Assembly (NCBI GenBank): GCA_964437785.1
Contig: CAYTJL010000046.1
Coordinates: forward strand, 16,610-32,338
DNA: 15,729 nucleotides
Source: an uncultured Polyangiaceae bacterium
GTDB taxonomy: Bacteria; Myxococcota_A; Polyangia; Polyangiales; Polyangiaceae
Direction of reading: 5' to 3'
The notes beneath the pieces were generated by a model. The model did not search any database. It was not told the DNA's origin and was given only the letters and a program-made list of their open reading frames with translations. The first letter of the stretch is position 1; every line of letters begins with the position of its first letter. Shown here one piece after another: positions 3,020 to 15,729 of the stretch. A program made the translations under genes and the position numbers.

Positions 3020-4690
<1,671 letters not shown>

Positions 4691-8918: not shown

Positions 8919-9019
8919 CGCCCGACGATGGCACGATGGCACGATGGTGCCGAAGGGTGAGGGTCAAACCCACCTCCCAAAGCCCCTCAAAAAAAATGGG
9001 GCTTGAGGAAACTTTTTAC

Positions 9020-9047
9020 TTGCGCATCTCGTCTGAGGTCTTATACA
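9020..9047 (+). promoter_or_regulatory. sigma70-like promoter candidate (TTGCGC-N16-TATACA)
   Basis: TTGCGC at 9020-9025 and TATACA at 9042-9047, in the lower-GC stretch that opens the noncoding region after ygfZ. Confidence 0.25.
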
Positions 9048-9305
9048 GTCACCCAAGTCAGTCTGGGGAATCGCAATGTATCTCTGTCAACGCCAGCCCA
9101 TGCTTACCGCCACGTCGCTGAACGCGACGACGGGGCTGCTTGCGCTCGGTTGGGAGCATCGCGAATTTACCTCATTTCAACGAGGAACGCTCGTCCTCTC
9201 GGCGAATTTGGGCGGTCGTGGCTCCGTGAGCCCCAAAGCCAGCAGCATCAAGCCGGAGGATAGGCTTTAGGGCGGCGCTAGTATTCGTCTCTTCGAGACG
9301 CATGC

Positions 9306-9347
9306 GAAGGCCGCCCGGGATACCCCGAGGCGGCCTTCGGCGTTTCT
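9306..9347 (+). terminator. GC-rich hairpin with weak T-rich tail
   Basis: GAAGGCCGCC (9306-9315) pairs perfectly with GGCGGCCTTC (9329-9338) and is followed by GGCGTTTCT. More T-runs follow, including a GGCTTTTTCA x2 tandem at 9364-9383. Confidence 0.35.
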
Positions 9348-9634
9348 GGGCCTCGTTTTCCTCGGCTTTTTCAGGCTTTTTCAGTCGCTTTGCGTGACAA
9401 CGACGTTGCGCGAGCCTAGGTGTGGTGTGCCCAAAGGGGCGCCCAGCGGGCCTCTCGTCCGCATCTCTCGATACGGTATCTCCGCCGTTTAGGAGGTGAC
9501 GTGTGCCCGCTGTGATCGGATGAAGCAACAAGGGGGTTGAAGCATCGTGGGGAGGGGTGCGTCCGCGGAGCGGGCTCGCCGGAGGGGAGAGGTGCGCCCA
9601 GCGCGCGCGGCAGCAGATATCGAATCATTGTTTT

Positions 9635-9707
9635 GGACCTGTCGCTCAAAGGCCGAGCAGCCGTTTCTTACACGGCGTTCATGAGGGTTCGAGTCCCTTC
9701 AGGTCCT
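9635..9707 (+). tRNA. tRNA-Lys(CTT)
   Basis: Acceptor GGACCTG/CAGGTCC; D arm GCTC-AAAGGCC-GAGC; anticodon stem GCCGT/ACGGC with loop TTCTTAC; T arm GAGGG-TTCGAGT-CCCTT. The variable region is 6 nt and no CCA is encoded. Confidence 0.8.
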
Positions 9708-9795
9708 CCGTCCGTCAACAGGGTCTCTCCTCTTGATGGACTCTCACGAACACGAGGCCCGGGGCGCATCTCACGACGCGTCTTTGGGCCGATCT

Positions 9796-9867
9796 GAGCT
9801 CGTCACTCAACGGCCGAGTAGCCGCCTCTTAAGCGGTAGTATGAGGGTTCGAGTCCCTCCGAGCTCA
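9796..9867 (+). tRNA. tRNA-Lys(CTT)
   Basis: Acceptor GAGCTCG/CGAGCTC; D arm ACTC-AACGGCC-GAGT; anticodon stem GCCGC/GCGGT with loop CTCTTAA; T arm GAGGG-TTCGAGT-CCCTC; discriminator A; no CCA. Confidence 0.85.
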
Positions 9868-9897
9868 CCGAGCGCCTCGAACGGTCGAGGCGTGATT

Positions 9898-9969
9898 GGA
9901 CCCGTCTCTCAATGGTCGAGTCGCCGCCTTTTAAGCGGTCATATAGGGGTTCGAGTCCCCTCGGGTCCG
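9898..9969 (+). tRNA. tRNA-Lys(TTT)
   Basis: Acceptor GGACCCG/CGGGTCC; anticodon stem GCCGC/GCGGT with loop CTTTTAA; T arm AGGGG-TTCGAGT-CCCCT. The D stem TCTC/GAGT has a T:T at 10:25. Confidence 0.8.
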
Positions 9970-10005
9970 CTGGAGCACGCGCTCCTTTACATAGATGGTT
10001 TGCAC

Positions 10006-10078
10006 ATCAGGGTAGCCTAATCGGCGAGGGCAGCGGTCTCTGAAACCGCCTGTGTGGGTTCGAGCCCCACCCCTGGTA
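10006..10078 (+). tRNA. tRNA-Gln(CTG)
   Basis: Acceptor ATCAGGG/CCCTGGT (U2:G71); D arm GCCT-AATCGGCGA-GGGC; anticodon stem GCGGT/ACCGC with loop CTCTGAA; 4-nt variable region; T arm GTGGG-TTCGAGC-CCCAC. Confidence 0.8.
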
Positions 10079-10082
10079 CTAC

Positions 10083-10141
10083 GCGCGATCGAAGGCGATC
10101 GCGCCTTGGTCTCTGACAATCGATCTCATTGATTGTGATCA
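10083..10141 (+). promoter_or_regulatory. hairpin plus TGACAATCGA promoter-like junction module (copy 1)
   Basis: A 9-bp hairpin GCGCGATCG-AAGG-CGATCGCGC (10083-10104) is followed by CTGACAATCGA (10113-) and GATC..CACGATGGG. A second copy lies at 14803-14862. Confidence 0.3.
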
Positions 10142-10176
10142 CGATGGGGGTCGTCCGTCGACGACCTCTGTCATCT

Positions 10177-10248
10177 TGCGGCGTAGCCTAATGGTAGAGC
10201 ACTCGCCTGTTAAGCGAGCCCTTGGGGGTTCGAGTCCCTCCGCCGCAG
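10177..10248 (+). tRNA. tRNA-Asn(GTT)
   Basis: Acceptor TGCGGCG/CGCCGCA (U1:A72) with discriminator G; anticodon stem CTCGC/GCGAG with loop CTGTTAA; T arm GGGGG-TTCGAGT-CCCTC. The D stem GCCT/GAGC has one C:A mismatch. Confidence 0.8.
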
Positions 10249-10256
10249 CCGATCAC

Positions 10257-10328
10257 GCCCTCGAAGCTCAAGTGGCAGAGCACCTGACTCGTAAGCAGGT
10301 GGACCCGGTTCGACTCCGGGCGAGGGCT
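10257..10328 (+). tRNA. tRNA-Thr(CGT)
   Basis: Acceptor GCCCTCG/CGAGGGC; D arm GCTC-AAGTGGCA-GAGC; loop CTCGTAA; T arm CCCGG-TTCGACT-CCGGG. It has an A31:G39 mismatch and A at position 8. Confidence 0.75.
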
Positions 10329-10344
10329 CCACGTTGTTCACCTT

Positions 10345-10416
10345 GCCCCTGAAGCTCAAGAGGTGGAGCACCTGCCTTGTAATCAGGAGGACCCGGTTCG
10401 ACTCCGGGCTGGGGCT
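10345..10416 (+). tRNA. tRNA-Thr(TGT)
   Basis: Acceptor GCCCCTG/CTGGGGC (T:T at 6:67); D arm GCTC-AAGAGGTG-GAGC; loop CTTGTAA; T arm CCCGG-TTCGACT-CCGGG. It has a C31:T39 mismatch and A at position 8. Confidence 0.7.
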
Positions 10417-10430
10417 CCCTTCGCGTATTT

Positions 10431-10506
10431 GGCCCGTTCATCTAGCGGTCAGGATCCTGGTCTTTCAAACCAGTGTGGAGGGGTTCGACTCCCCTACGGG
10501 CTACCA
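10431..10506 (+). tRNA. tRNA-Glu(TTC), CCA encoded
   Basis: Acceptor GGCCCGT/ACGGGCT (G1:U72). The D arm has the Glu-type 3-bp stem, ATC-TAGCGGTCAG-GAT. Anticodon stem CTGGT/ACCAG with loop CTTTCAA; T arm AGGGG-TTCGACT-CCCCT; discriminator A followed by CCA (10504-10506). Confidence 0.85.
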
Positions 10507-10531
10507 TCTTCTTCTCTCCTTCTTCTCTCAC

Positions 10532-10606
10532 GGGTTGTGAGCAAGTCCGGTGATTCTGCGCGGAGCTGAAGCCTCCGAGAACCTGGTTCGACTCCAGGAC
10601 AACCCA
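10532..10606 (+). tRNA. tRNA-Phe(GAA)
   Basis: Acceptor GGGTTGT/ACAACCC; anticodon stem CGGAG/CTCCG with loop CTGAAGC; T arm CCTGG-TTCGACT-CCAGG; discriminator A. The D arm is oversized (19 nt, stem GCA(A)/(C)TGC) and position 8 is G. Confidence 0.7.
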
Positions 10607-10610
10607 CCTT

Positions 10611-10682
10611 CGAGACGTAGCCTAGTGGAAAGGCGCCTCATTTGGGGTGAGGAGCTCGCCGGTTCGATTCCGGCCGTCTCGA
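10611..10682 (+). tRNA. tRNA-Pro(TGG)
   Basis: Acceptor CGAGACG/CGTCTCG (C1:G72, typical of bacterial tRNA-Pro); D arm GCCT-AGTGGAA-AGGC; anticodon stem CCTCA/TGAGG with loop TTTGGGG; T arm GCCGG-TTCGATT-CCGGC; discriminator A. Confidence 0.88.
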
Positions 10683-10742
10683 CCGCTGAACCCATAACCA
10701 TCGCCCGCGACGAGCGGGCCGACACCGATAAAGGAGGACACC

Positions 10743-12374
10743 ATGGTGAGCTATGCCAAGCACTTCACGGCGCTCTTCACGCCGCAGCGGGAGAAGGCCC
10801 GTTCGGATCAGGTGAAGAACAACGCCGGAGGGTTCGTGTTCGAGCTCGGCCTCTGGCCCAAGCTCGATCGGTGGCTCATCCTCGGGTGCGAGGGTGGGTC
10901 GTATTACGCGACCGAGCGCGCGATGACCCTCGACAACGCAAAGACGGTCCTCGCGTGCTTGGCCAAGGACGGCCTCCGCACCGTCGCGCGCATCGTCGAG
11001 GTGAGCCGCGACGGGCGCGCGCCCAAGAACGCTCCCGCGGTGTTCGCGCTCGCCATGGCCTCCGCGGACACCGCCATTGACGTCCGCCGCGCGGCGCTCG
11101 CGGCGATCCCCGAGGTGTGCCGCACCGGTACGGATCTCTTCCACTTCGTCCGCGACGTGGAGGGCTTTCGCCGTTGGGGCCGCGGTCTCCGCAAGGCGGT
11201 CGCGGCGTGGTACAACGACAAGCCCATTCAGAGGCTCGCGTACCAGGCCCTCAAGTACCGCTCCCGCGACGGGTGGAGCCACCGTGACGTGCTGAGGCTC
11301 GCTCACCCCACGGCGCCGACACCGGAGCACCAGGCGCTTTATCGCTGGATCACCGGCGGTATGGAGGGGCTCCTCAAGGAGCCCACGAAGGGCGCGCCGG
11401 TCGAGCTCGACAAGCTGCCTGCGATGGTCACCGCGTTCGAGGCGCTCCAGGCGTCCAAGGACAAGAAGACCACGTTGGCGCTCATCCGGGAGCACCGTTT
11501 CACCCACGAGATGCTGCTCACCGAGTGGAAGAACGATCCCGACGTCTGGGAGGCGCTGCTCGAGGACATGCCTTTGACAGCGCTCCTCCGCAACCTCGGG
11601 AAGATGACCGCGGTCGGCCTCTTTGGCTCGTTCTCGTCCACGACGCGCAGGGTCGCGCGGCAAATCACGGACGCTCCGCGGCTCAAGAGGTCTCGTGTCC
11701 ACCCGGTCGCGCTGCTCTCGGCCCTCAAGGTCTATGAGCAGGGCCACGGCGAGCGAGCCATGCGGCGCGACAACGCGCTCTCATGGAAGCCCGCGCGCGA
11801 GATCGTGGACGCCTTGAACGACGCGTTTTATCTGTCGTTCAAGACCATCGATCCGACCGGCAAGCGGCACCTCCTGGCGCTCGACGTCTCGGGCTCCATG
11901 TGCGGGGGCACCATCGCCGGCGTCCCCGGCCTCTCCCCCCGCGTGGGGAGCGCGGCCATGGCGCTCGCGACAGCCAAGGTCGAGCCCTTCTATGATGTGG
12001 TCGGGTTCACGGGATCGCTCACGCGGCTCGGGATCTCCGCACATCAAAGGCTCGATGACGTGCTGAAGAGGGTGGATGGCCTGCCCTTCGGGAGCACCGA
12101 TTGCGCCTTGCCGATGATCTGGGCCAAGGAGAACAAGGTCGAGGTCGACACGTTCGTGGTCTACACGGACAACGAGACGTGGTTTGGGAAGGTCCACCCG
12201 TTCCAAGCGCTGCGCGATTACCGCCAGGCGACTGGGCGGGCGGCCAAGCTGGTCGTGGTCGGGATGACCGCCACGGGCTTCACCATCGCAGACCCGTCCG
12301 ACGCAGGGATGCTCGATGTGGTCGGCTTCGACGCGGCAGCGCCCGCGCTGATGGCCGATTTCGCGAGGGCATGA
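10743..12374 (+). CDS. rsr: Ro 60-kDa ribonucleoprotein orthologue (TROVE domain plus vWA/MIDAS domain), Rsr
   Basis: 543 aa with a strong Shine-Dalgarno AAGGAGG (10731-10737) 5 nt before the ATG. By my recollection of vertebrate Ro60, several blocks are near-identical: GCEGGSYY, WSHRDVLRLAHP, MPLTALLRNLGKMTA, GSTDCALPMIWA, VVYTDNETW, GFTIADPSDAGMLDVVGFD. The MIDAS motif is LDVSGSM. The gene starts 60 nt after tRNA-Pro. Confidence 0.95.
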   Translation: MVSYAKHFTALFTPQREKARSDQVKNNAGGFVFELGLWPKLDRWLILGCEGGSYYATERAMTLDNAKTVLACLAKDGLRTVARIVEVSRDGRAPKNAPAVFALAMASADTAIDVRRAALAAIPEVCRTGTDLFHFVRDVEGFRRWGRGLRKAVAAWYNDKPIQRLAYQALKYRSRDGWSHRDVLRLAHPTAPTPEHQALYRWITGGMEGLLKEPTKGAPVELDKLPAMVTAFEALQASKDKKTTLALIREHRFTHEMLLTEWKNDPDVWEALLEDMPLTALLRNLGKMTAVGLFGSFSSTTRRVARQITDAPRLKRSRVHPVALLSALKVYEQGHGERAMRRDNALSWKPAREIVDALNDAFYLSFKTIDPTGKRHLLALDVSGSMCGGTIAGVPGLSPRVGSAAMALATAKVEPFYDVVGFTGSLTRLGISAHQRLDDVLKRVDGLPFGSTDCALPMIWAKENKVEVDTFVVYTDNETWFGKVHPFQALRDYRQATGRAAKLVVVGMTATGFTIADPSDAGMLDVVGFDAAAPALMADFARA

Positions 12375-12380
12375 CCCTCT

Positions 12381-12420
12381 GAGGTGAGCCGCTTGGGCAA
12401 GAGCAGCTCACCTCGTTTAT
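12381..12420 (+). terminator. hairpin 6 nt after the rsr stop (attenuator, processing site or weak terminator)
   Basis: GAGGTGAGC (12381-12389) pairs with GCTCACCTC (12406-12414) and is followed only by GTTTAT. The next tRNA starts at 12421, so read-through or processing is likely. Confidence 0.3.
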
Positions 12421-12493
12421 ACCCCCGAGCCGACCTGGACTCGGAGCCGGTCTCCTAAACCGGAAGAAGCGGGTTCGAATCCCGCCGGGGGTG
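12421..12493 (+). tRNA. tRNA-Arg(CCT), slightly non-canonical
   Basis: Acceptor ACCCCCG/CGGGGGT (A1:U72); D arm CCGA-CCTGGAC-TCGG; anticodon stem CCGGT/ACCGG with loop CTCCTAA; T arm GCGGG-TTCGAAT-CCCGC. Two nt (AG) separate the D and anticodon stems, and position 8 is A. Confidence 0.65.
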
Positions 12494-12499
12494 CCGCAC

Positions 12500-12624
12500 G
12501 CCGTTGTAGCTCAGCCTGGTAGAGCACCTAAAACACCGTCTCTAATGTTTGCCTGCGAGGGCCGGTCAGGGATGGTTATCACTTTTCCAGTGGGATGACG
12601 CGGGTTCAAATCCCGTCAACGGCG
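12500..12624 (+). ncRNA. tRNA-like RNA with ~51-nt expansion between D arm and anticodon-like hairpin
   Basis: It has a canonical acceptor GCCGTTG/CAACGGC, D arm GCTC-AGCCTGGTA-GAGC and T arm GCGGG-TTCAAAT-CCCGT. However, 73 nt (12527-12599) occupy the space of a 22-nt anticodon arm plus variable loop. The only anticodon-like hairpin is ATCAC-TTTTCCA-GTGGG (12578-12594), with a pyrimidine at position 37. Confidence 0.6.
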
Positions 12625-12778
12625 CCGGATAGTAGAAGCCGTCTCATAAATCGTCGCGAGCGCCCCGATCACGTGTCCGAGCGAGAACCGGAGCGGAGAA
12701 TACTCCCGTATTTGAGCACCGGAAGCGCAGCGAGGACACGTCAGCGGGGCGCGCAGCAGATTTATGAGACGGCTTCTA
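12622..12778 (+). ncRNA. 157-nt extended imperfect hairpin with 20-bp perfect terminal helix (candidate Y-RNA-like ligand of Rsr, or MITE-like inverted repeat)
   Basis: TAGAAGCCGTCTCATAAATC (12622-12641) is the exact reverse complement of 12759-12778. Inner helices are GCGCCCCG/CGGGGCGC, ACGTGTCC/GGACACGT and CCGG/CCGG, with apical GGAG-AATA-CTCC. The third helix contains GUCCGA. Confidence 0.55.
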
Positions 12779-13081
12779 GACGATCGCTCGTGGATCGGAG
12801 GGGGTCATCGCGCATCGGGGGATTCGGAGGGCCACAGGTCGCTCCGTCGGGGACAGCCTCGCTCTGACACGTGGACCCGCATCACATGGAGGACGAGACG
12901 TCGCAAGTCCCCTCCTCCGCTCACGTGGCCCTCGCTCACCCCGCTCGCACGATAATCCCCCTCCGCCCACTTCGCTCGCGCTGTTGCAGCACTGTTTTTC
13001 AGGGCGATTCGAGCGATAACGCTGGCTTAATAGATGGCTAGATAAAAAGACGGGTGAAGAAAAAAGAATGAACCAAGTAGG

Positions 13082-13110
13082 TTGACAGAGCGTCTAAGAG
13101 AACATAAAAG
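13082..13110 (+). promoter_or_regulatory. sigma70-type promoter, cassette copy 1 (TTGACA-N17-TAAAAG)
   Basis: TTGACA at 13082-13087 and TAAAAG at 13105-13110, preceded by A-rich tracts (13041-13068). It lies within the ~40-bp repeat 13069-13108, which has a near-identical copy at 13225-13264. The predicted start is at or next to the tRNA 5' end (13118). Confidence 0.6.
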
Positions 13111-13117
13111 ATATCGA

Positions 13118-13190
13118 GTCTTCGATGTGCCCCCGGCGGGGCAGCCTGATTGTCGATCAGGTGAATGGGGTTCGACTCCCCTCGAAGACG
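13118..13190 (+). tRNA. tRNA-Asp(GTC)-like, non-canonical D region
   Basis: Acceptor GTCTTCG/CGAAGAC; anticodon stem CCTGA/TCAGG with loop TTGTCGA; T arm TGGGG-TTCGACT-CCCCT (T:T at 49:65). There is a 3-nt 8/9 linker (ATG) and a G/C-only D hairpin TGCC(C)-CCGGCG-(G)GGCA. Confidence 0.55.
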
Positions 13191-13237
13191 CCGCGAAGAA
13201 AAGAGCAAGGGAGATAAAAAAGAGTGAACCAAATAGG

Positions 13238-13266
13238 TTGACAGAGCGTCTAAGAGAACATAAGAT
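13238..13266 (+). promoter_or_regulatory. sigma70-type promoter, cassette copy 2 (TTGACA-N17-TAAGAT)
   Basis: TTGACA at 13238-13243 and TAAGAT at 13261-13266, preceded by A-rich tracts (13197-13224). The 17-nt spacer GAGCGTCTAAGAGAACA is identical to that of copy 1. Confidence 0.65.
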
Positions 13267-13285
13267 AAGACGCGCTGGGGGACAT

Positions 13286-13356
13286 AGGGTGTAGAGTCAA
13301 GGTGACCGCGGAGCCTCCAAATCTCCGGCGAGAGGGTTCGATTCCTTCACACCCTG
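13286..13356 (+). tRNA. tRNA-Trp(CCA)
   Basis: Acceptor AGGGTGT/ACACCCT (A1:U72) with discriminator G, as I recall for enterobacterial tRNA-Trp. The anticodon loop is CTCCAAA in stem CGGAG(C)/(T)CTCCG; T arm GAGGG-TTCGATT-CCTTC. The D arm is reduced to (A)GTC-AAGGT-GAC(C). Confidence 0.65.
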
Positions 13357-13449
13357 CCGGCGGGCCGGCGCTCGCGCGTTATCGGTGCTCGTGGCACGAG
13401 GTCGGTCGCGCGACGAAACCTCGTCCGTCTTCACGTCACATTGGTGTTT

Positions 13450-13521
13450 GCCCTCGTATGCCTCTGGTGAGGCAGCCTGACTGTCGATCAGGTGAGGGGA
13501 GTTCGATCCTCCTCGGGGGCG
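13450..13521 (+). tRNA. tRNA-Asp(GTC)
   Basis: Acceptor GCCCTCG/CGGGGGC (U5:G68); D arm TGCC-TCTGGTGA-GGCA; anticodon stem CCTGA/TCAGG with loop CTGTCGA; T arm GGGAG-TTCGATC-CTCCT; discriminator G. Confidence 0.85.
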
Positions 13522-13587
13522 CCGGGCCGCGGGCGTTGGGTTATCCTCTTAAGATACCCCCCAGCACCCTTCTTTTGTCCGATCTAT

Positions 13588-13658
13588 GGGGCGGTAATTC
13601 AACGGGAGAAGCTCACACTTGCAATGTGAATATCGGGGTTCGACTCCCCGTCGCTCCA
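13588..13658 (+). tRNA. tRNA-Ala(TGC)
   Basis: Acceptor GGGGCGG/TCGCTCC with the G3:U70 alanine identity pair and discriminator A. Anticodon stem TCACA/TGTGA with loop CTTGCAA; T arm CGGGG-TTCGACT-CCCCG. The D stem ATTC/GAAG has A:G at 10:25. Confidence 0.8.
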
Positions 13659-13672
13659 CCCATGGGCCGATT

Positions 13673-13741
13673 GTGTTGGGTTATCGGTTGATAGCCTGAA
13701 ACGCTGGCCGGGTCAAACCGGCCGTCCCAACACGTATTTTT
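13673..13741 (+). terminator. factor-independent terminator candidate
   Basis: The outer stem GTGTTGGG (13673-13680) / CCCAACAC (13726-13733) encloses the GGCCGG-GTCAAA-CCGGCC hairpin and is followed directly by GTATTTTT (13734-13741). Confidence 0.6.
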
Positions 13742-13773
13742 GCCCAGGTCTCCTTTCAGATATCGTATTTGTC

Positions 13774-13845
13774 GGGACGGTAGTTCAACCGGGAGAATCT
13801 TACCTTCGCAAGGTAGGGATCGGGGTTCGAGTCCCCGCCGCTCCA
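13774..13845 (+). tRNA. tRNA-Ala(CGC)
   Basis: Acceptor GGGACGG/CCGCTCC with G3:U70 (A4:C69 mismatch) and discriminator A; D arm GTTC-AACCGGGA-GAAT; anticodon stem TTACC/GGTAG with loop TTCGCAA; T arm CGGGG-TTCGAGT-CCCCG. Confidence 0.8.
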
Positions 13846-14060
13846 CCGGGACGAGCCGACCTCACGAGCAAGGAGCTCGATGGGAATCGCGTTCGCCCAC
13901 CAACTTCGCCGCCGGGCGCCGGATCCGTTCAATCGGTTCCACTTGTGTTTGTTCCCTGCTCGATTGGAGCAGGTTTCGCTGCCGAGGCCCAGAGAGCGGG
14001 GCGCCCGTTTGGTATGCGGGAGACGGTGAGTGCAATTCTCGCGGGCAGCTCGATAGTAAC

Positions 14061-14131
14061 GCGGTGACAGCTCAACGGTAGAGTGCGGGGTTGCCAGCCT
14101 CGCGGTAGGGGTTCGATTCCCCTTCACCGCA
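14061..14131 (+). tRNA. tRNA-Gly(GCC)
   Basis: Acceptor GCGGTGA/TCACCGC; D arm GCTC-AACGGTA-GAGT; anticodon stem CGGGG/CCTCG with loop TTGCCAG; T arm AGGGG-TTCGATT-CCCCT. Position 8 is C. Confidence 0.8.
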
Positions 14132-14175
14132 CCGATCGGCAGGGCTCTCTCGGCCGATCTCTCGACATACGATAT

Positions 14176-14248
14176 GTGGGCGTTACTCGTCTGGTGACGA
14201 GGGCAGACTGTGACCCTGCGGAGGCGGGTTCAATTCCCGTACGTCCAC
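14176..14248 (+). tRNA. tRNA-His(GTG) with encoded G-1
   Basis: G-1 (14176) lies opposite discriminator C73 (14248). Acceptor TGGGCGT/ACGTCCA; D arm CTCG-TCTGGTGA-CGAG; loop CTGTGAC (A31:C39 mismatch); T arm GCGGG-TTCAATT-CCCGT. Confidence 0.82.
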
Positions 14249-14250
14249 CC

Positions 14251-14272
14251 GGGCCCATGGAAGCATGGGCCC
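14251..14272 (+). other. perfect 9-bp hairpin with GAAG tetraloop in a tRNA spacer
   Basis: GGGCCCATG-GAAG-CATGGGCCC immediately 3' of tRNA-His. No T-tract follows. Confidence 0.6.
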
Positions 14273-14421
14273 TCAACCAAGCAACCGAGGAGAGGAGGCT
14301 CTTATGAAGCTCATGAAGCTGCGCGCCTGGATTGTCCGGTTCTGCCCTCCTGCTCCCCATTCCGACCCTCACCCCCCAACGAAGCGCGGGGGGTGAGGGC
14401 TCCTCCAACGAAGCACCCCAA

Positions 14422-14495
14422 GCGGGCATGGTCTATTGGCTGGGCCTCGGGCTTCCAACCCGGTGAAGTGGGTTCAATTCCCTCTGTCCGCTCCA
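14422..14495 (+). tRNA. tRNA-Gly(TCC), CCA encoded
   Basis: Acceptor GCGGGCA/TGTCCGC; D arm GTCT-ATTGGCT-GGGC; anticodon stem TCGGG/CCCGG with loop CTTCCAA; T arm GTGGG-TTCAATT-CCCTC (T:T at 50:64). Discriminator T is followed by CCA (14493-14495). Confidence 0.78.
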
Positions 14496-14505
14496 CATCA
14501 CGATT

Positions 14506-14574
14506 GAGCCGGTCCTCAGGCGAGGGACGTGGTCTGCAAAACCGTTTCTCCGGGTTCGATTCCCGGTCGGCTCT
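14506..14574 (+). tRNA. tRNA-Cys(GCA) with miniature D arm (69 nt)
   Basis: Acceptor GAGCCGG/TCGGCTC with discriminator T (U73 is the Cys identity base); loop CTGCAAA in stem GTGGT/ACCGT; T arm CCGGG-TTCGATT-CCCGG. The D region is T-CCTC-AGGC-GAGG-GAC, a 4-bp stem with a 4-nt loop. Confidence 0.65.
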
Positions 14575-14627
14575 CTGGAGGTCTCCGCCGCTCACGGCTG
14601 CTCGACGTGAAGGGCGGTGACCTCTGC

Positions 14628-14697
14628 GCCTCCGTCCCAGGGATGGGCGGGTCGTCTTCTAAACGACCGCACGCGGGCTCGACTCCCGCCGGGGGCT
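14628..14697 (+). tRNA. tRNA-Arg(TCT) with miniature D arm (70 nt)
   Basis: Acceptor GCCTCCG/CGGGGGC; anticodon stem GTCGT/ACGAC with loop CTTCTAA; T arm GCGGG-CTCGACT-CCCGC, with C rather than T at position 54. The D region is T-CCCA-GGGA-TGGG-CGG. Confidence 0.65.
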
Positions 14698-14723
14698 CTC
14701 TCGATAGACTCGTCTCTCTCTTT

Positions 14724-14796
14724 GTCCCTATCTGCTAACGGCTCAGGCGACTGGATTCTCGATCCAGGGATGCGGGTTCGAATCCCGCTGGGGACG
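14724..14796 (+). tRNA. tRNA-Glu(CTC)
   Basis: Acceptor GTCCCTA/TGGGGAC; Glu-type D arm TGC-TAACGGCTCAG-GCG; anticodon stem CTGGA/TCCAG with loop TTCTCGA; T arm GCGGG-TTCGAAT-CCCGC; discriminator G. Confidence 0.8.
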
Positions 14797-14802
14797 CCGC
14801 GC

Positions 14803-14862
14803 GCGCCTCGTCAATCGACGACGCGCCCGCTCTTTGACAATCGAACGGCTCATCGCGATCGT
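14803..14862 (+). promoter_or_regulatory. hairpin plus TTGACAATCGA promoter-like junction module (copy 2)
   Basis: A hairpin at 14803-14826 (10 positions, one C:C mismatch) is followed by TTGACA (14834-14839), a 17-nt spacer, GATCGT and CACGCGATGGG. It parallels the module at 10083-10141. The -10 match is poor. Confidence 0.3.
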
Positions 14863-14880
14863 CACGCGATGGGCCAAAGA

Positions 14881-14955
14881 CGGAGTGTGGCTCAGCCTGG
14901 CAAGAGCGTCTGTCTGGGGGACAGAAGATCGCCGGTTCGAATCCGGCCACTCCGA
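14881..14955 (+). tRNA. tRNA-Pro(GGG)
   Basis: Acceptor CGGAGTG/CACTCCG (C1:G72); D arm GCTC-AGCCTGGCAA-GAGC; anticodon stem TCTGT/ACAGA with loop CTGGGGG; T arm GCCGG-TTCGAAT-CCGGC; discriminator A. Confidence 0.88.
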
Positions 14956-15002
14956 CCCCGCGCGGTCCGCGCGCGGGAGAAGGCACGGGACTCGCCCGCT
15001 CA

Positions 15003-15073
15003 TTCAGAGTCGCCCAAGGGTAGGGCAACAGCCTCCAACGCTGTTCGCTGTGGGTTCAAATCCCATCTCGAAA
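15003..15073 (+). tRNA. tRNA-Trp(CCA)-like with defective/bulged acceptor stem (possible pseudogene)
   Basis: The D arm GCCC-AAGGGTA-GGGC, anticodon arm ACAGC-CTCCAAC-GCTGT and T arm GTGGG-TTCAAAT-CCCAT are all good. The acceptor TTCAGAG vs CTCGAA pairs only if A15006 is bulged. Confidence 0.5.
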
Positions 15074-15270
15074 CAAACATGCGCCGGCTCTCTACCCGTG
15101 CCCCCTCCCGCTCGCGGACGACACCGGTACTCACGCGCTCGTTCAGGAAACCACCCACGTTGAAAATGGGTCCGTAATTAAAACGGAACGACGAACCTCG
15201 AGCTCGTACCCTCTCCGGTGTCCCCGCGCGCCTCTCTCACCCGGGGAACTTTCGTGTCGGTTCAGAGACA

Positions 15271-15347
15271 TCGGCCTTTCCAGCCGAAGGTGCTGGTTCG
15301 ATTCCAGCTCGCCCCACTCTACGGGGCGATGGTCCAATGGTAGGACA
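15271..15347 (+). ncRNA. circularly permuted tRNA-like element (anticodon-like hairpin, T arm, closed acceptor hairpin, D arm)
   Basis: The element reads TCGGC-CTTTCCA-GCCGA (15271-15287), AGGT, T arm GCTGG-TTCGATT-CCAGC. Then TCGCCCC (15309-15315) is closed by loop ACTCTAC onto GGGGCGA (15323-15329), followed by TG and D arm GTCC-AATGGTA-GGAC (15332-15346). Joining 15323-15347 in front of 15271-15316 gives a perfect 71-nt cloverleaf. Confidence 0.6.
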
Positions 15348-15366
15348 TCAAAAACGACCCGAGCTC

Positions 15367-15383
15367 TATCCCCGGTTTTTTTT
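15367..15383 (+). terminator. U8 tract ending the RNA array (terminator candidate)
   Basis: TATCCCCGG is followed by TTTTTTTT (15376-15383). TCCCCGG can pair with CCGGGGA (15241-15247), or ATCCCCG with CGGGG(C)GAT (15322-15330). Confidence 0.45.
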
Positions 15384-15411
15384 CAAACAACCAACAAGGA
15401 GCGATCAACCC

Positions 15412-15729
15412 ATGACCATGCAACAGGTTGTCGAGAAGACCGTCAAGGCGACCGCCGCTGAGGTGTGGTCGCTCCCCGCCGACGTCGCCGCGAGCGACGC
15501 TGGCCAAATCACCCTCTCGTTCCTCGACGCCGCGATCACCGCGACCGCGAGGGCGACCCACGACAACACCCGTGAAGAGCAGATGGCGGCCGCGCAGCGC
15601 GCCCACGAGGCGATGCTGAGGCTCGATCGGAGGCTCTACGCGCTCTGCCTGGTGCTCCCGGGCGTCACCGACTACGCGCGCCAGCTCGGCCTCAAGAACC
15701 TGCTCGGCGAGAAGCGGATGGAGGATGAC
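15412..15729 (+). CDS. hypothetical protein (5' partial; runs off the right edge)
   Basis: AAGGAG (15396-15401) lies 10 nt before the ATG at 15412. The frame is open for 106 codons to the window end with G/C-rich third positions: MTMQQVVEKTVKATAAEVWSLPADVAASDAGQITLSFLD.... No family recognised. It is absent from the ORF track because no stop codon is in the window. Confidence 0.55.
   Translation, partial: MTMQQVVEKTVKATAAEVWSLPADVAASDAGQITLSFLDAAITATARATHDNTREEQMAAAQRAHEAMLRLDRRLYALCLVLPGVTDYARQLGLKNLLGEKRMEDD

Follow-up and report, generated by a model that had tools for sequence, protein, structure and literature searches.

An rsr (Ro60) gene within a tRNA array and a tRNA-shaped Y-RNA candidate in an uncultured Polyangiaceae bacterium

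We analyzed a 15,729-nucleotide stretch of DNA (hereafter the window) from an uncultured Polyangiaceae bacterium (assembly GCA_964437785.1, contig CAYTJL010000046.1, positions 16,610 to 32,338 of the forward strand). In it rsr, which encodes a Ro60 ortholog, lies inside an array of tRNA genes and close to a tRNA-shaped element, here named R1, that we consider a candidate Y RNA.

The rsr gene and its tRNA array

Of the tRNA genes in the window, 23 are sound and two are decayed; rsr is intact, and all of them lie on the plus strand. ARAGORN called 22 tRNAs, all on that strand, 10 in 9635-10684 and 12 in 12421-15074, and 17 of the 22 were backed by the Rfam tRNA model at its gathering score. The Rfam model added three elements: an Asp at 13450-13521, a Thr(GGU)-like element at 13978-14050 and a 125-nt "tRNA with large insertion" at 12500-12624, which is R1. 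The features of the array are listed below; tRNAs were called by ARAGORN unless stated otherwise, and bit scores are those of the Rfam tRNA model unless another model is named.

9635-9709, plus strand: tRNA-Lys(CUU), 49.4 bits
9796-9869, plus strand: tRNA-Lys(CUU), 59.5 bits
9898-9970, plus strand: tRNA-Lys(UUU), 52.6 bits
10006-10079, plus strand: tRNA-Gln(CUG), 59.6 bits
10177-10250, plus strand: tRNA-Asn(GUU), 59.3 bits
10257-10331, plus strand: tRNA-Thr(CGU), 55.3 bits
10345-10418, plus strand: tRNA-Thr(UGU), 53.1 bits; 85% identical to tRNA-Thr(CGU) at 10257-10331
10431-10506, plus strand: tRNA-Glu(UUC), 54.2 bits
10532-10608, plus strand: tRNA-Phe(GAA) with atypical D arm; ARAGORN only, under the Rfam tRNA cut-off
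10611-10684, plus strand: tRNA-Pro(UGG), 63.4 bits
10743-12374, plus strand: rsr, Ro60 ortholog, 543 aa, TROVE and vWA_Ro60 domains; Shine-Dalgarno GGAGG at 10733-10737
12421-12495, plus strand: tRNA-Arg(CCU), 41 bits; in the equal position 3' of rsr in Minicystis and Byssovorax
12500-12624, plus strand: R1, Y-RNA candidate, 125 nt; R1 covariance model 121 bits, Rfam tRNA 46.2 bits
13118-13192, plus strand: tRNA-Asp(GUC) with 6-bp D stem and 4-nt D loop; sub-threshold tRNA-Sec match; D-arm type shared with the array Asp of relatives
13285-13356, plus strand: decayed tRNA-Trp(CCA)-like element; sub-threshold tRNA-Sec match (28.9 bits) only, no ARAGORN call
13450-13521, plus strand: tRNA-Asp(GUC), second copy, long D stem, 48.3 bits; found with Rfam
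13588-13662, plus strand: tRNA-Ala(UGC), 55.9 bits; G3:U70 and A73 kept (identity elements read from the sequence)
13774-13847, plus strand: tRNA-Ala(CGC), 51 bits; G3:U70 kept
13978-14050, plus strand: degenerate tRNA-Thr(GGU)-like element with aberrant T arm and acceptor, 34.8 bits; no ARAGORN call
14061-14133, plus strand: tRNA-Gly(GCC), 57.4 bits
14176-14250, plus strand: tRNA-His(GUG) with encoded G-1 opposite C73 and 6-bp D stem; tRNA-Sec model 41.8 bits
14422-14495, plus strand: tRNA-Gly(UCC), 49 bits
14506-14575, plus strand: tRNA-Cys(GCA), short D loop; sub-threshold in Rfam
14628-14698, plus strand: tRNA-Arg(UCU), short D loop; sub-threshold in Rfam
14724-14798, plus strand: tRNA-Glu(CUC), 52.6 bits
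14881-14957, plus strand: tRNA-Pro(GGG), 63.5 bits
15003-15074, plus strand: tRNA-Trp(CCA), 47.5 bits
15240-15383, plus strand: permuted YrlA-like RNA (15240-15375) with U8 tract (15376-15383); from its fold and a partial Rfam YrlA match

The original prediction, made from the sequence alone, had placed ten tRNAs before rsr and a further tRNA block with odd elements after it, and its coordinates and spacings are correct. The Shine-Dalgarno sequence lies 5 nt 5' of the rsr ATG, tRNA-Pro ends 58 nt 5' of the ATG and tRNA-Arg starts 46 nt 3' of the stop. What had been described as three aberrant tRNA-like elements resolves into R1, the decayed Trp-like element, the Thr(GGU)-like element and the YrlA-like RNA, besides two long hairpins. 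It had also been envisaged that covariance models might score most members as pseudogenes; most members pass, with 18 of them at 41-63.5 bits. By the definition of Tran et al. 2016 (PMC4758250), a tRNA array unit has 20 or more tRNA genes, with no fewer than 2 per kb. Here, 23 tRNAs lie within 9635-15074 (5.4 kb including the 1.6-kb rsr), and a density of about 4 per kb in a single orientation cannot be due to chance.

Five of the ARAGORN tRNAs score below the Rfam cut-off: Phe (from 10532), Asp (13118), His (14177), Cys (14506) and Arg-UCU (14628). As read from the sequence, the D stems are 6 bp in Asp and His and 4-5 bp in Cys and Arg-UCU, and all four have 4-nt NGGN loops. It is because of these 4-6-bp stems and short loops that the four miss the cut-off; they also give sub-threshold matches to the tRNA-Sec model, but Phe, with its irregular D arm, does not. 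The tRNA-Sec-like D arms (5-6-bp stem, 4-nt UGGN loop) of the array Asp and His, seen to a lesser degree in Cys, Arg-UCU and some Lys and Gly, are kept from Polyangiaceae to Kofleriaceae with compensatory changes (array Asp and His in loci L004-L080 of the set described below).

The array tRNAs look functional, with a cloverleaf under purifying selection. Among 39 array orthologs of tRNA-Asn(GUU) the cloverleaf is upheld by compensatory changes in 16 of 19 pairs and the anticodon loop is nearly invariant, while tRNA-Gly(GCC) orthologs are near-identical and show T-stem compensation. Likewise, the Asp copy at 13450-13521 is 79% identical to 13128-13193, and the D-stem changes between them are compensatory. 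Most array tRNAs encode N-CC but not the final A. Minicystis has a Thr(GGU) at the place in the gene order where the window has its degenerate Thr(GGU)-like element.

These tRNAs also look accessory and, on indirect evidence, redundant. The content of the array varies among Sorangium strains (Trp, His, Gln and Arg may be present or absent) and, as single-anticodon tRNAs such as Trp are missing from some arrays, other copies must exist elsewhere. In the window, the array has duplicates and two decayed copies, and ARAGORN found no Tyr, Met, Ile, Val, Leu or Ser.

The Rsr protein has a TROVE domain, the ring of HEAT repeats (PF05731, E = 2.2e-41, residues 24-327), and a C-terminal Ro60-type vWA domain (PF25045, E = 2e-64) whose metal ion-dependent adhesion site motif DxSxS (D381, S383, S385) is invariant in an alignment of 21 sequences. 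It matches the solved Ro60/Rsr structures 9nen, 2nvo and 1yvp over residues ~9-542 (E = 1e-119 to 1e-122) and scores 550 bits with the NCBIfam Rsr equivalog model, under that model's strict 900-bit cut-off. With both domains present and a full-length match to solved structures, rsr is the true Ro60 ortholog it had been predicted to be. The closest named Rsr proteins are from Sorangium, Minicystis, Chondromyces, Byssovorax and Polyangium (66-72% identity, 100% coverage), and since the closest proteins are all from Polyangiaceae a haloarchaeal origin was rejected. Within the family, identity declines roughly with taxonomic distance. Rsr of Chloroflexota, Armatimonadota and Brocadia is 54-58% identical to that of the window, and Rsr of other myxobacterial orders 51-56%. 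The exact protein recurs in three short metagenome contigs only, each of which breaks soon after rsr.

Recurrence of the cassette in bacteria and phages

A conserved cassette of rsr, tRNA-shaped Y RNA and tRNA array, with an HNH gene in part of the cases, is common to Polyangia, other phyla and phages, and we consider this result secure. Using a profile of 21 Rsr proteins we retrieved the 80 closest rsr loci from GTDB species genomes, each with 10-kb flanks. In 57 of the 80 at least five tRNAs lie on the rsr strand within 6 kb, and in 52 they lie on both sides of the gene. The complete Sorangium chromosomes sampled have 6-13 same-strand tRNAs near rsr (L006-L013, L016, L017, L019-L022), Polyangium 26-29, Byssovorax 34-35, Chondromyces apiculatus 38 and Minicystis rosea 54 (ARAGORN calls). 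Arrays are also found in metagenome-assembled genomes (MAGs) of Haliangiales/Kofleriaceae and in single MAGs of Oscillatoriaceae, Sericytochromatia, Caldilineaceae and Armatimonadota, and five same-strand tRNAs accompany rsr in Desulfonema magnum.

The gene order is collinear. On the 5' side of rsr it reads (Tyr) Lys Lys Gln Asn Thr Glu Phe Pro His, and on the 3' side Arg-CCU, R1, Trp/Asp/Ala... Gly Gly Cys Arg-UCU Glu ... Arg Arg Met Met Pro Pro Val Ile Val Leu Leu Leu. Collinearity spans Polyangiaceae, Kofleriaceae and the IMG/VR contig L087, the window conforms to it up to its end, and the fuller arrays cover nearly all amino acids in this conserved order. The original prediction that rsr is functionally tied to the array is borne out to the extent that the linkage is functional or selected, as shown by its presence in 57 of 80 loci, the collinear order and the purifying selection on the array tRNAs. 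A 170-aa HNH endonuclease (PF01844/PF14279) is encoded inside 45 arrays on the same strand, usually after the Leu block, and homologs occur in the contigs L087, L116, L123 and L125. The array HNH (L136 13270-13788, homologs in 55 loci) matches the HNH domains of IscB/Cas9d in NCBIfam and of PtuB in PADLOC, which probably explains why such genes in Mycobacterium arrays have been annotated as "Cas9".

Among viral contigs from IMG/VR, 51 encode an Rsr relative and about nine of these have tRNA arrays adjoining rsr. One of them (L123) has 41 tRNAs, rsr, an HNH gene of the same family (40% identity), a large terminase, an endolysin and a helicase, the last three of which identify it as a real phage, and in L087 the myxobacterial tRNA order is repeated around rsr. 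A Ro-like protein is encoded by 356 GenBank phages, two of which we inspected: in Streptomyces phage Paradiddles the Ro-like gene lies in a tRNA-rich region with an adjoining HNH gene, and in the Bxz1-type phage ArcherS7 the Ro gene lies 3 kb from the last tRNAs. R1 had no match at E <= 1e-10 in these two phage loci.

The genes flanking the cassette are not shared. A tblastn comparison of the window's flanking proteins with the GTDB-derived rsr loci gave no common synteny; matches were confined to Logan contigs of the same organism and a weak methyltransferase match in L037. Flanking genes also differ between Sorangium, Polyangium and Minicystis. Because the flanks are unshared and the Rsr proteins of other phyla are equally close, we conclude that the cassette moved between lineages.

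Several known systems resemble parts of this locus. Like the tRNA array units surveyed so far (PMC4758250; PMC5966550; those of M. avium linear plasmids, PMC12803027), it is co-oriented, with at least 20 tRNAs for most amino acids, an embedded HNH gene as recurrent coding sequence, other noncoding RNAs and deviant D or anticodon arms; such units are found in chromosomes, plasmids and phages and an anti-defense role has been suspected for them. HNH is the commonest coding sequence in Mycobacterium arrays (Morgado & Vicente 2018, PMC5966550). In contrast, the available text of these surveys, which cover Firmicutes, Cyanobacteria, Actinobacteria, gamma-Proteobacteria and Mycobacterium, reports no rsr/TROVE gene and no Myxococcota, whereas here rsr and the Y-RNA candidates are integral, conserved parts of the array. 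One precedent is archaeal: a TROVE gene in 20 of 29 haloarchaeal tRNA gene clusters, mentioned in one sentence and left uninterpreted (Morgado & Vicente 2019, PMC6333295). By that description these clusters share with the window a TROVE gene inside the cluster, some pseudogene members and a suspected mobile-element context, but they belong to another domain of life and no Y-RNA candidates were described in them. The tRNA-rich actinophages (Bxz1-type, Paradiddles) likewise have a Ro-like protein, 38-51% identical, and Paradiddles the adjoining HNH gene; unlike in the window, their setting is a phage genome in which the tRNAs are interspersed with many small open reading frames (ORFs). Work on jumbo phages lists TROVE among RNA-repair genes. 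The original prediction knew of no described system of this architecture; the haloarchaeal clusters and actinophage Ro genes precede it, and the locus is a combination of two known kinds of system, Ro60/Y RNA and tRNA array, with partial precedents. The literature searched, which did not extend to the 2020 Annual Review on bacterial Ro60 or the supplementary tables of Chen 2014, offered no description of rsr-centered bacterial arrays or of an unpermuted YrlA-type RNA.

R1 and other Y-RNA-like elements

R1 starts 126 nt 3' of the rsr stop, on the plus strand. In the window copy the acceptor, D and T arms stand in normal order and an extra arm is added, with its stem at 12535-12543 / 12568-12576. 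At the apex of this arm UUUGCCU (12548-12554) faces GGGCCGG (12559-12565) with a bulged C; GGUUAUC (12574-12580) and a decayed anticodon-like hairpin follow. Seven aligned copies share a plan of five parts, a normal acceptor, a normal D arm, an extra 9-bp arm with an inner hairpin, a further hairpin and a normal T arm. The acceptor stem is 7 bp and N-CC is encoded, as in the neighboring tRNAs.

With a covariance model built on the seven copies and a counting threshold of 60 bits, we found 92 copies in 62 of the 80 rsr loci, all on the rsr strand and at most ~2.5 kb from rsr. Fifteen of these 62 loci have fewer than five nearby tRNAs, and mostly none; examples are a Chthonomonadaceae MAG with three copies of R1 and a Chloroflexia MAG with four. 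About 20 viral contigs with a GC content of 35-65% have R1 next to rsr as well. Tandem R1 copies (3-7) without tRNA arrays were seen in L029 (11890-13817, seven copies, six above 60 bits), L049 (9221-9918) and L044 (8591-9822).

All five helices of R1 covary. Across the alignment 95% of the cells are paired, double changes occur in 25 of 30 pairs, and none of 500 shuffles matches the observed value. The apex helix has the form 5'-UYGCCY / GGGC[C]GR-3', in which C132 is bulged in 90 of 92 copies and the adjoining Y-G pair 77-133 is standard in all 92. The invariant nucleotides are, on the one hand, the tRNA tertiary set (U8, A14, GG, GGUUCGAnUCC) and, on the other, the extra arm (UuGcCc ... GGGCCG ... 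GGUUAuC), with a nearly invariant GGGCCG(R) motif and UUAU or UUAC ahead of the next hairpin. In vertebrate and Deinococcus Y RNAs, Ro60 contacts a bulged GGUCCGA helix (Chen et al. 2014, PMC4201824). The tip of the R1 arm matches the architecture of this helix and is a candidate Rsr site, except that the apex helix of R1 is closed by a loop at the point where the two ends of a Y RNA lie.

The cyclic order of R1 is that of YrlA: Ro motif, YUAY, hairpin, T arm, acceptor, D arm. Unlike YrlA, R1 ends at the acceptor stem, keeps the normal tRNA order, so that the permuted YrlA topology is absent from 12500-12624, and carries its Ro site on a closed extra arm. R1 is thus best read as a YrlA without the circular permutation, and a transcript reaching from one tandem R1 arm to the next would have the permuted YrlA order. 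The hairpin after GGUUAUC has a 7-nt loop in about 19 of the 92 copies, mostly anticodon-like (CUGUUAA, CUCUUAA, CUUUUAA, CUGCAGA and others), and is decayed in the remainder, including the window copy. Hairpins that are in part anticodon-like suggest that R1 descends from real tRNAs.

Rfam YrlA does not detect R1, tandem copies included (none at E <= 0.01), and it gave no gathering-score match in 14 related loci. As the Rfam YrlA and Y_RNA models miss R1, Y RNAs may be under-counted in Myxococcota, Chloroflexota, Armatimonadota, relatives of Cyanobacteria and phages. In the window, both models gave sub-threshold matches only, even with permissive thresholds. A YrlA match of 33.9 bits at 12461-12531 spans the junction of tRNA-Arg and R1 and was discarded as a "dimeric tRNA" artifact of the kind against which Chen et al. 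caution. Also rejected were the ARAGORN "tRNA-Asn" calls L018:11914 and L079:12447, which are fragments of R1-like elements, and the "tRNA-Gly" call L022:19337, a false positive within a coding repeat. In an uncultured gammaproteobacterium (L062 2636-2780), 145 nt directly after rsr reach the gathering score of Rfam RF01656, the nematode ceN72/74 RNAs, which are stem-bulge RNAs and the worm homologs of Y RNAs. A bacterial rsr is thus accompanied here by a Y RNA signature of metazoan type.

Two further stretches of the window repeat part of the R1 arm and are probably remnants of decayed R1 copies:

13524-13545, plus strand: R1-arm relic GGGCCG-N9-GGUUAUC with spacing identical to R1, directly after tRNA-Asp; a CUCUUAA anticodon-like hairpin follows
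13664-13685, plus strand: second R1-arm relic GGGCCG-N9-GGUUAUC in a structured spacer, directly after tRNA-Ala

The RNA that follows the second tRNA block, at 15240-15375, has the permuted YrlA topology by its fold. Its closing stem (15240-15247 / 15369-15375) is made of both ends and encloses a V hairpin with GCCGAAG (15283-15289), a T arm (15292-15308), a loop-capped 7-bp acceptor-like stem (15309-15329) and a D-like arm (15330-15347). Rfam YrlA (RF02553) matches 15291-15346 with 26.1 bits (E = 0.027); since the gathering score is 69 bits, membership in the YrlA family is not established. The sole homolog, in Minicystis (L014:14898-15014, full length, E = 1.6e-9), also closes the second tRNA block and has an equal fold with compensatory changes in the V, T and acceptor-like stems. 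Of the YrlA motif GNCGAAN0-1G, expected near the 5' end, the window RNA has GCCGAAG, which lies within the V hairpin, and Minicystis only ACCGAAA. The RNA lies ~2.9 kb 3' of the rsr stop on the same strand (< 4 kb). At least two of the odd tRNA-like elements, R1 and this RNA, are candidate tRNA mimics of the Y-RNA type.

These elements link the locus to the known Rsr/Y RNA modules (YrlA, YrlB, Yrn1) of Salmonella, M. smegmatis and Deinococcus (Chen et al. 2013/2014; Wang et al. 2018), which also combine a Ro60 ortholog with tRNA-mimicking noncoding RNAs within a few kb on the same strand, and which share the GGUCCGA-like Ro motif and the cyclic order motif, YUAY, hairpin, T arm, acceptor, D arm. 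The window differs from them in that about two dozen real tRNA genes are placed to either side of rsr, R1 and the YrlA-like RNA score under the Rfam YrlA gathering score, and there is no rtcBA/rtcR neighborhood. M. smegmatis YrlA is cleaved by RNase P and has CCA added to it (PMC4201824), and in Salmonella rsr-yrlBA-rtcBA is reported to be induced by damaged tRNAs (PMC7790460). Y RNAs adjoin tRNAs in some bacteria, and a dimeric-tRNA origin model has been cited (Wang et al. 2018, 10.1101/312249). Chen et al. discarded YrlA matches that overlapped tandem tRNAs and reported few YrlAs in delta-proteobacteria and cyanobacteria.

Transcription, proposed function and surroundings of the array

The segment 8964-9360 at the 5' edge of the array is conserved in 31 loci (nhmmer), within Polyangiaceae. 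It holds the first three of the following elements with a possible bearing on transcription.

8990-9049, plus strand: promoter-like module with A-tract 8990-8996, -35 TTGCGC 9020-9025, 18-nt spacer and -10 TACAGT 9044-9049; both hexamers conserved in the alignment
9076-9270, plus strand: small ORF, 64 aa, with GWEH and C-terminal NPE[DN] motifs; start, motifs and stop conserved in 58-aa Sorangium orthologs
9306-9350, plus strand: 10-bp GC hairpin (9306-9315 / 9329-9338), then GGCGUUUCUGGG; almost invariant in the alignment
12381-12414, plus strand, just after the rsr stop: 9-bp hairpin, then GUUUAU, weak terminator- or processing-like; read from the sequence, a sub-part found in the terminator scan
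13060-13110, plus strand: internal promoter-like module 1 with A-rich tract, TTGACA 13082-13087, 17 nt and TAAAAG 13105-13110, 7 nt 5' of tRNA-Asp
13216-13266, plus strand: internal promoter-like module 2 with A-rich tract, TTGACA 13238-13243, 17 nt and TAAGAT 13261-13266; promoter scan 10/12 matches

The small ORF matched no family. It is called as a gene on Logan contigs and, conserved as it is, contradicts the original prediction that 8919-15411 holds no other convincing protein gene. The nearly invariant upstream GC hairpin precedes GCGUUUCU, a weak U tract, and appears terminator- or attenuator-like. Taken together, the segment looks like a leader/attenuator or a small-protein gene governing entry into the array.

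A consensus scan and reading of the sequence revealed no promoter or terminator consensus between tRNA-Pro and rsr, which makes read-through from the tRNAs into rsr plausible. Operons that join tRNAs to an mRNA are known, for example tyrU-tufB of E. coli. The two internal modules are sigma70-like and share 96% identity over a 48-nt core (13060-13107), and module 2 ends 18 nt 5' of the decayed Trp-like element. With these modules the second tRNA block probably has promoters of its own; transcripts from module 1 would be nearly leaderless. It had been predicted that rsr is co-transcribed with the whole array. For the upstream ten tRNAs this is plausible though unproven, and for the downstream block the two sigma70-like modules make it doubtful. 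The hairpin directly after rsr (12381-12414) had no sequence conservation (nhmmer).

With moderate confidence, we interpret the locus as a chromosomal copy of a conserved accessory tRNA array unit, centered on rsr and the tRNA-shaped Y RNAs that belong to it, that would supply spare tRNAs together with a clean-up ribonucleoprotein. The quality-control, back-up or decoy function raised in the original prediction is an inference. The blocks would be transcribed as polycistrons, from which RNase P and 3'-processing enzymes would excise the tRNAs and R1 and free the rsr mRNA. Rsr would then bind the extra arm of R1 at its tip, where UYGCCY/GGGC[C]GR forms a bulged helix, while the tRNA-like body of R1 may recruit a partner that handles tRNAs or degrades RNA, as PNPase does in Deinococcus and Salmonella. 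A single locus could in this way yield both spare chargeable tRNAs and a ribonucleoprotein that handles or removes damaged or misfolded tRNA-like molecules. The most likely setting would be tRNA damage in conflict or stress, for example by anticodon nucleases or toxins, and the related phage cassettes might do an equal job against host tRNases.

Several observations weigh against this interpretation. The alignment in which R1 covaries was fitted to the model. Given the internal promoter-like modules and the conserved hairpin 9306-9338, the locus need not be one operon. Generic HNH matches aside, PADLOC does not recognize the cassette proteins as a defense system, and no RNA-repair gene (RtcB, RtcA, Pnkp/Hen1) is present in the window or in the relatives inspected. 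Finally, the 54 calls in the Minicystis rosea locus compare with 88 tRNAs reported for the whole genome (PMC8436480), and an array of this kind could supply much of ordinary translation.

A bolder reading, which we regard as rather doubtful, is that R1 represents a widespread Y-RNA class, so far undescribed, that has kept the topology of a true tRNA (a "five-arm tRNA" with a canonical Ro60-binding bulged helix on its extra arm). It would be the unpermuted ancestor of YrlA and would tether Rsr to tRNA-handling enzymes. The combination of rsr, R1, tRNAs and HNH would then act against anticodon nucleases as a mobile "replace and clean up" kit that phages and at least five bacterial phyla have exchanged.

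The Minicystis tally also bears on the idea that the array is the main housekeeping tRNA super-operon, in which rsr and the Y RNAs are passengers without a special link, the Y RNAs having arisen from tRNA duplicates and sharing their processing enzymes. This we judge unlikely. It would account for the strong purifying selection on the array tRNAs and their retained identity elements, for the conserved, strong promoter-like module with its A-tract upstream and for an Rsr identity that roughly tracks taxonomic distance inside Polyangiaceae. However, array content differs among Sorangium strains, with Trp in only some arrays. The window array has no gene for Tyr, Met, Ile, Val, Leu or Ser and includes duplicated and decayed members, several members have unusual long-stem D arms, and the cassette with HNH also occurs in phages and between flanking genes that differ from genus to genus.

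Those last points would suit a phage- or HNH-driven mobile tRNA array now drifting in the chromosome, with rsr as co-inherited cargo of little benefit, an explanation to which we give a low probability. Homologs of rsr, HNH and array lie together in the true phage contig and in other IMG/VR contigs, Paradiddles combines Ro, HNH and tRNAs, and the prevalence of HNH in Mycobacterium arrays (PMC5966550) points the same way. So do a genomic context that is unconserved between genera, Rsr proteins of other phyla as close as those of other Myxococcota orders, and the decayed tRNAs and R1-arm relics of the window. Mere drift is nevertheless hard to reconcile with an rsr that is intact and ~70% identical across genera at 100% coverage, with the compensatory evolution of tRNAs and R1, which implies long-term selection, and with the conserved promoter and small-ORF module. 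Moreover, no phage, integrase, transposase, terminase or capsid gene was found with Pfam and PHROGs among the window ORFs in the 9.6 kb upstream or directly 3' of the array. A prophage tRNA block, which the original prediction had itself raised as a possible outcome, is thus not what the window flanks show. A megablast of window positions 9000-15729 against 50,697 phage records gave no match.

It is improbable that many members are non-decoding tRNA look-alikes, serving as Rsr ligands, tRNase decoys or sources of regulatory fragments. R1 is after all a re-purposed cloverleaf in the same locus with varied or decayed anticodon-like hairpins, five ARAGORN tRNAs are under the Rfam cut-off, four of them with 4-6-bp D stems and 4-nt D loops, and most members encode N-CC without the final A. 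Against this, the Asn anticodon loop is invariant across the main Myxococcota array orthologs, Ala and His identity elements are kept, 18 members score 41-63.5 bits, and the fuller arrays span nearly all amino acids in conserved order.

That R1 is an ordinary tRNA gene with a removable short intron or insertion is hardly credible: the Rfam tRNA model does align R1 end to end with a 52-66-nt insertion, and about 19 of 92 copies keep a 7-nt anticodon-like loop, mostly of CUNNNAA type, but the insertion is the most conserved part of R1 (GGGCCG and GGUUAUC nearly invariant) and covaries as a helix, it sits between the D and anticodon stems, which is no known intron site, and a group I intron would have to be far longer; most of the anticodon-like loops have decayed, and the elements track rsr, not arrays.

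On the preferred interpretation as an accessory array unit built around rsr, the locus joins two open questions, the targets of bacterial Ro60/Y RNA complexes and the purpose of accessory tRNA arrays. The fusion is conserved in culturable Sorangium, Chondromyces and Minicystis, and the hypothesis that Rsr polices or services a spare tRNA pool is testable there. R1 also bears on the proposed tRNA origin of Y RNAs, as it unites a complete cloverleaf with a metazoan-type Ro-binding helix.

GC content falls from ~0.70 outside to ~0.60 across the array, a drop expected for, and attributed to, RNA genes. On the 5' side the neighbors are genes for an aminotransferase, a thioredoxin/rhodanese protein, a type II DNA methyltransferase, a redoxin, VKOR, two unknown proteins and a YgfZ-like protein. 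In PADLOC and NCBIfam, the matches were confined to the methyltransferase, the YgfZ-like gene and HNH (generic domain matches); the small ORF, the upstream ORFs and the 534-aa and ARPP proteins described below were unmatched, and Rsr was unmatched in PADLOC. Among the neighboring ORFs scanned no restriction partner for the methyltransferase was recognizable. The remaining features of the window are as follows.

3020-3994, minus strand: type II N6/N4 DNA methyltransferase (PADLOC MTase_II, E = 4e-131)
12633-12778, plus strand: 146-nt near-perfect hairpin with 20-bp perfect outer stem (fold z = -7)
14367-14400, plus strand: 12-bp GC hairpin in the His-Gly spacer, the second long hairpin
15412-15729, plus strand, running off the window: 5' part of a gene homologous to a Minicystis 534-aa protein (BLASTP 55% identity over 103 aa, E = 2e-33)

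In Minicystis, the 534-aa gene (family unknown) lies 3' of the YrlA-like RNA; next come a gene for an ARPP-1/ARPP-2 protein, a third block of tRNAs and the gene for HNH. By analogy, the window probably continues past its end with the 534-aa gene, an ARPP gene, a third tRNA block (Met/Val/Ile/Leu and others) and an HNH endonuclease. The pair of 534-aa and ARPP genes was seen in the window and Minicystis loci only (L135 15072-17632). The ARPP domain was reportedly tied to ADP-ribose conflict systems by Iyer et al. in 2022.

nhmmer searches with each non-tRNA spacer and both long hairpins found conservation in the upstream module and one marginal viral match only. The hairpin at 12633-12778 had no homolog in ~130 fetched loci (nhmmer) and is lineage-specific; it could have arisen as a palindromic insertion or be a further structured RNA. 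The metagenome contigs that belong to the same organism stop within this hairpin. The hairpin at 14367-14400 is overlapped by a 30-codon ORF that starts with the ATG at 14304 behind a strong GGAGAGGAGG Shine-Dalgarno sequence.

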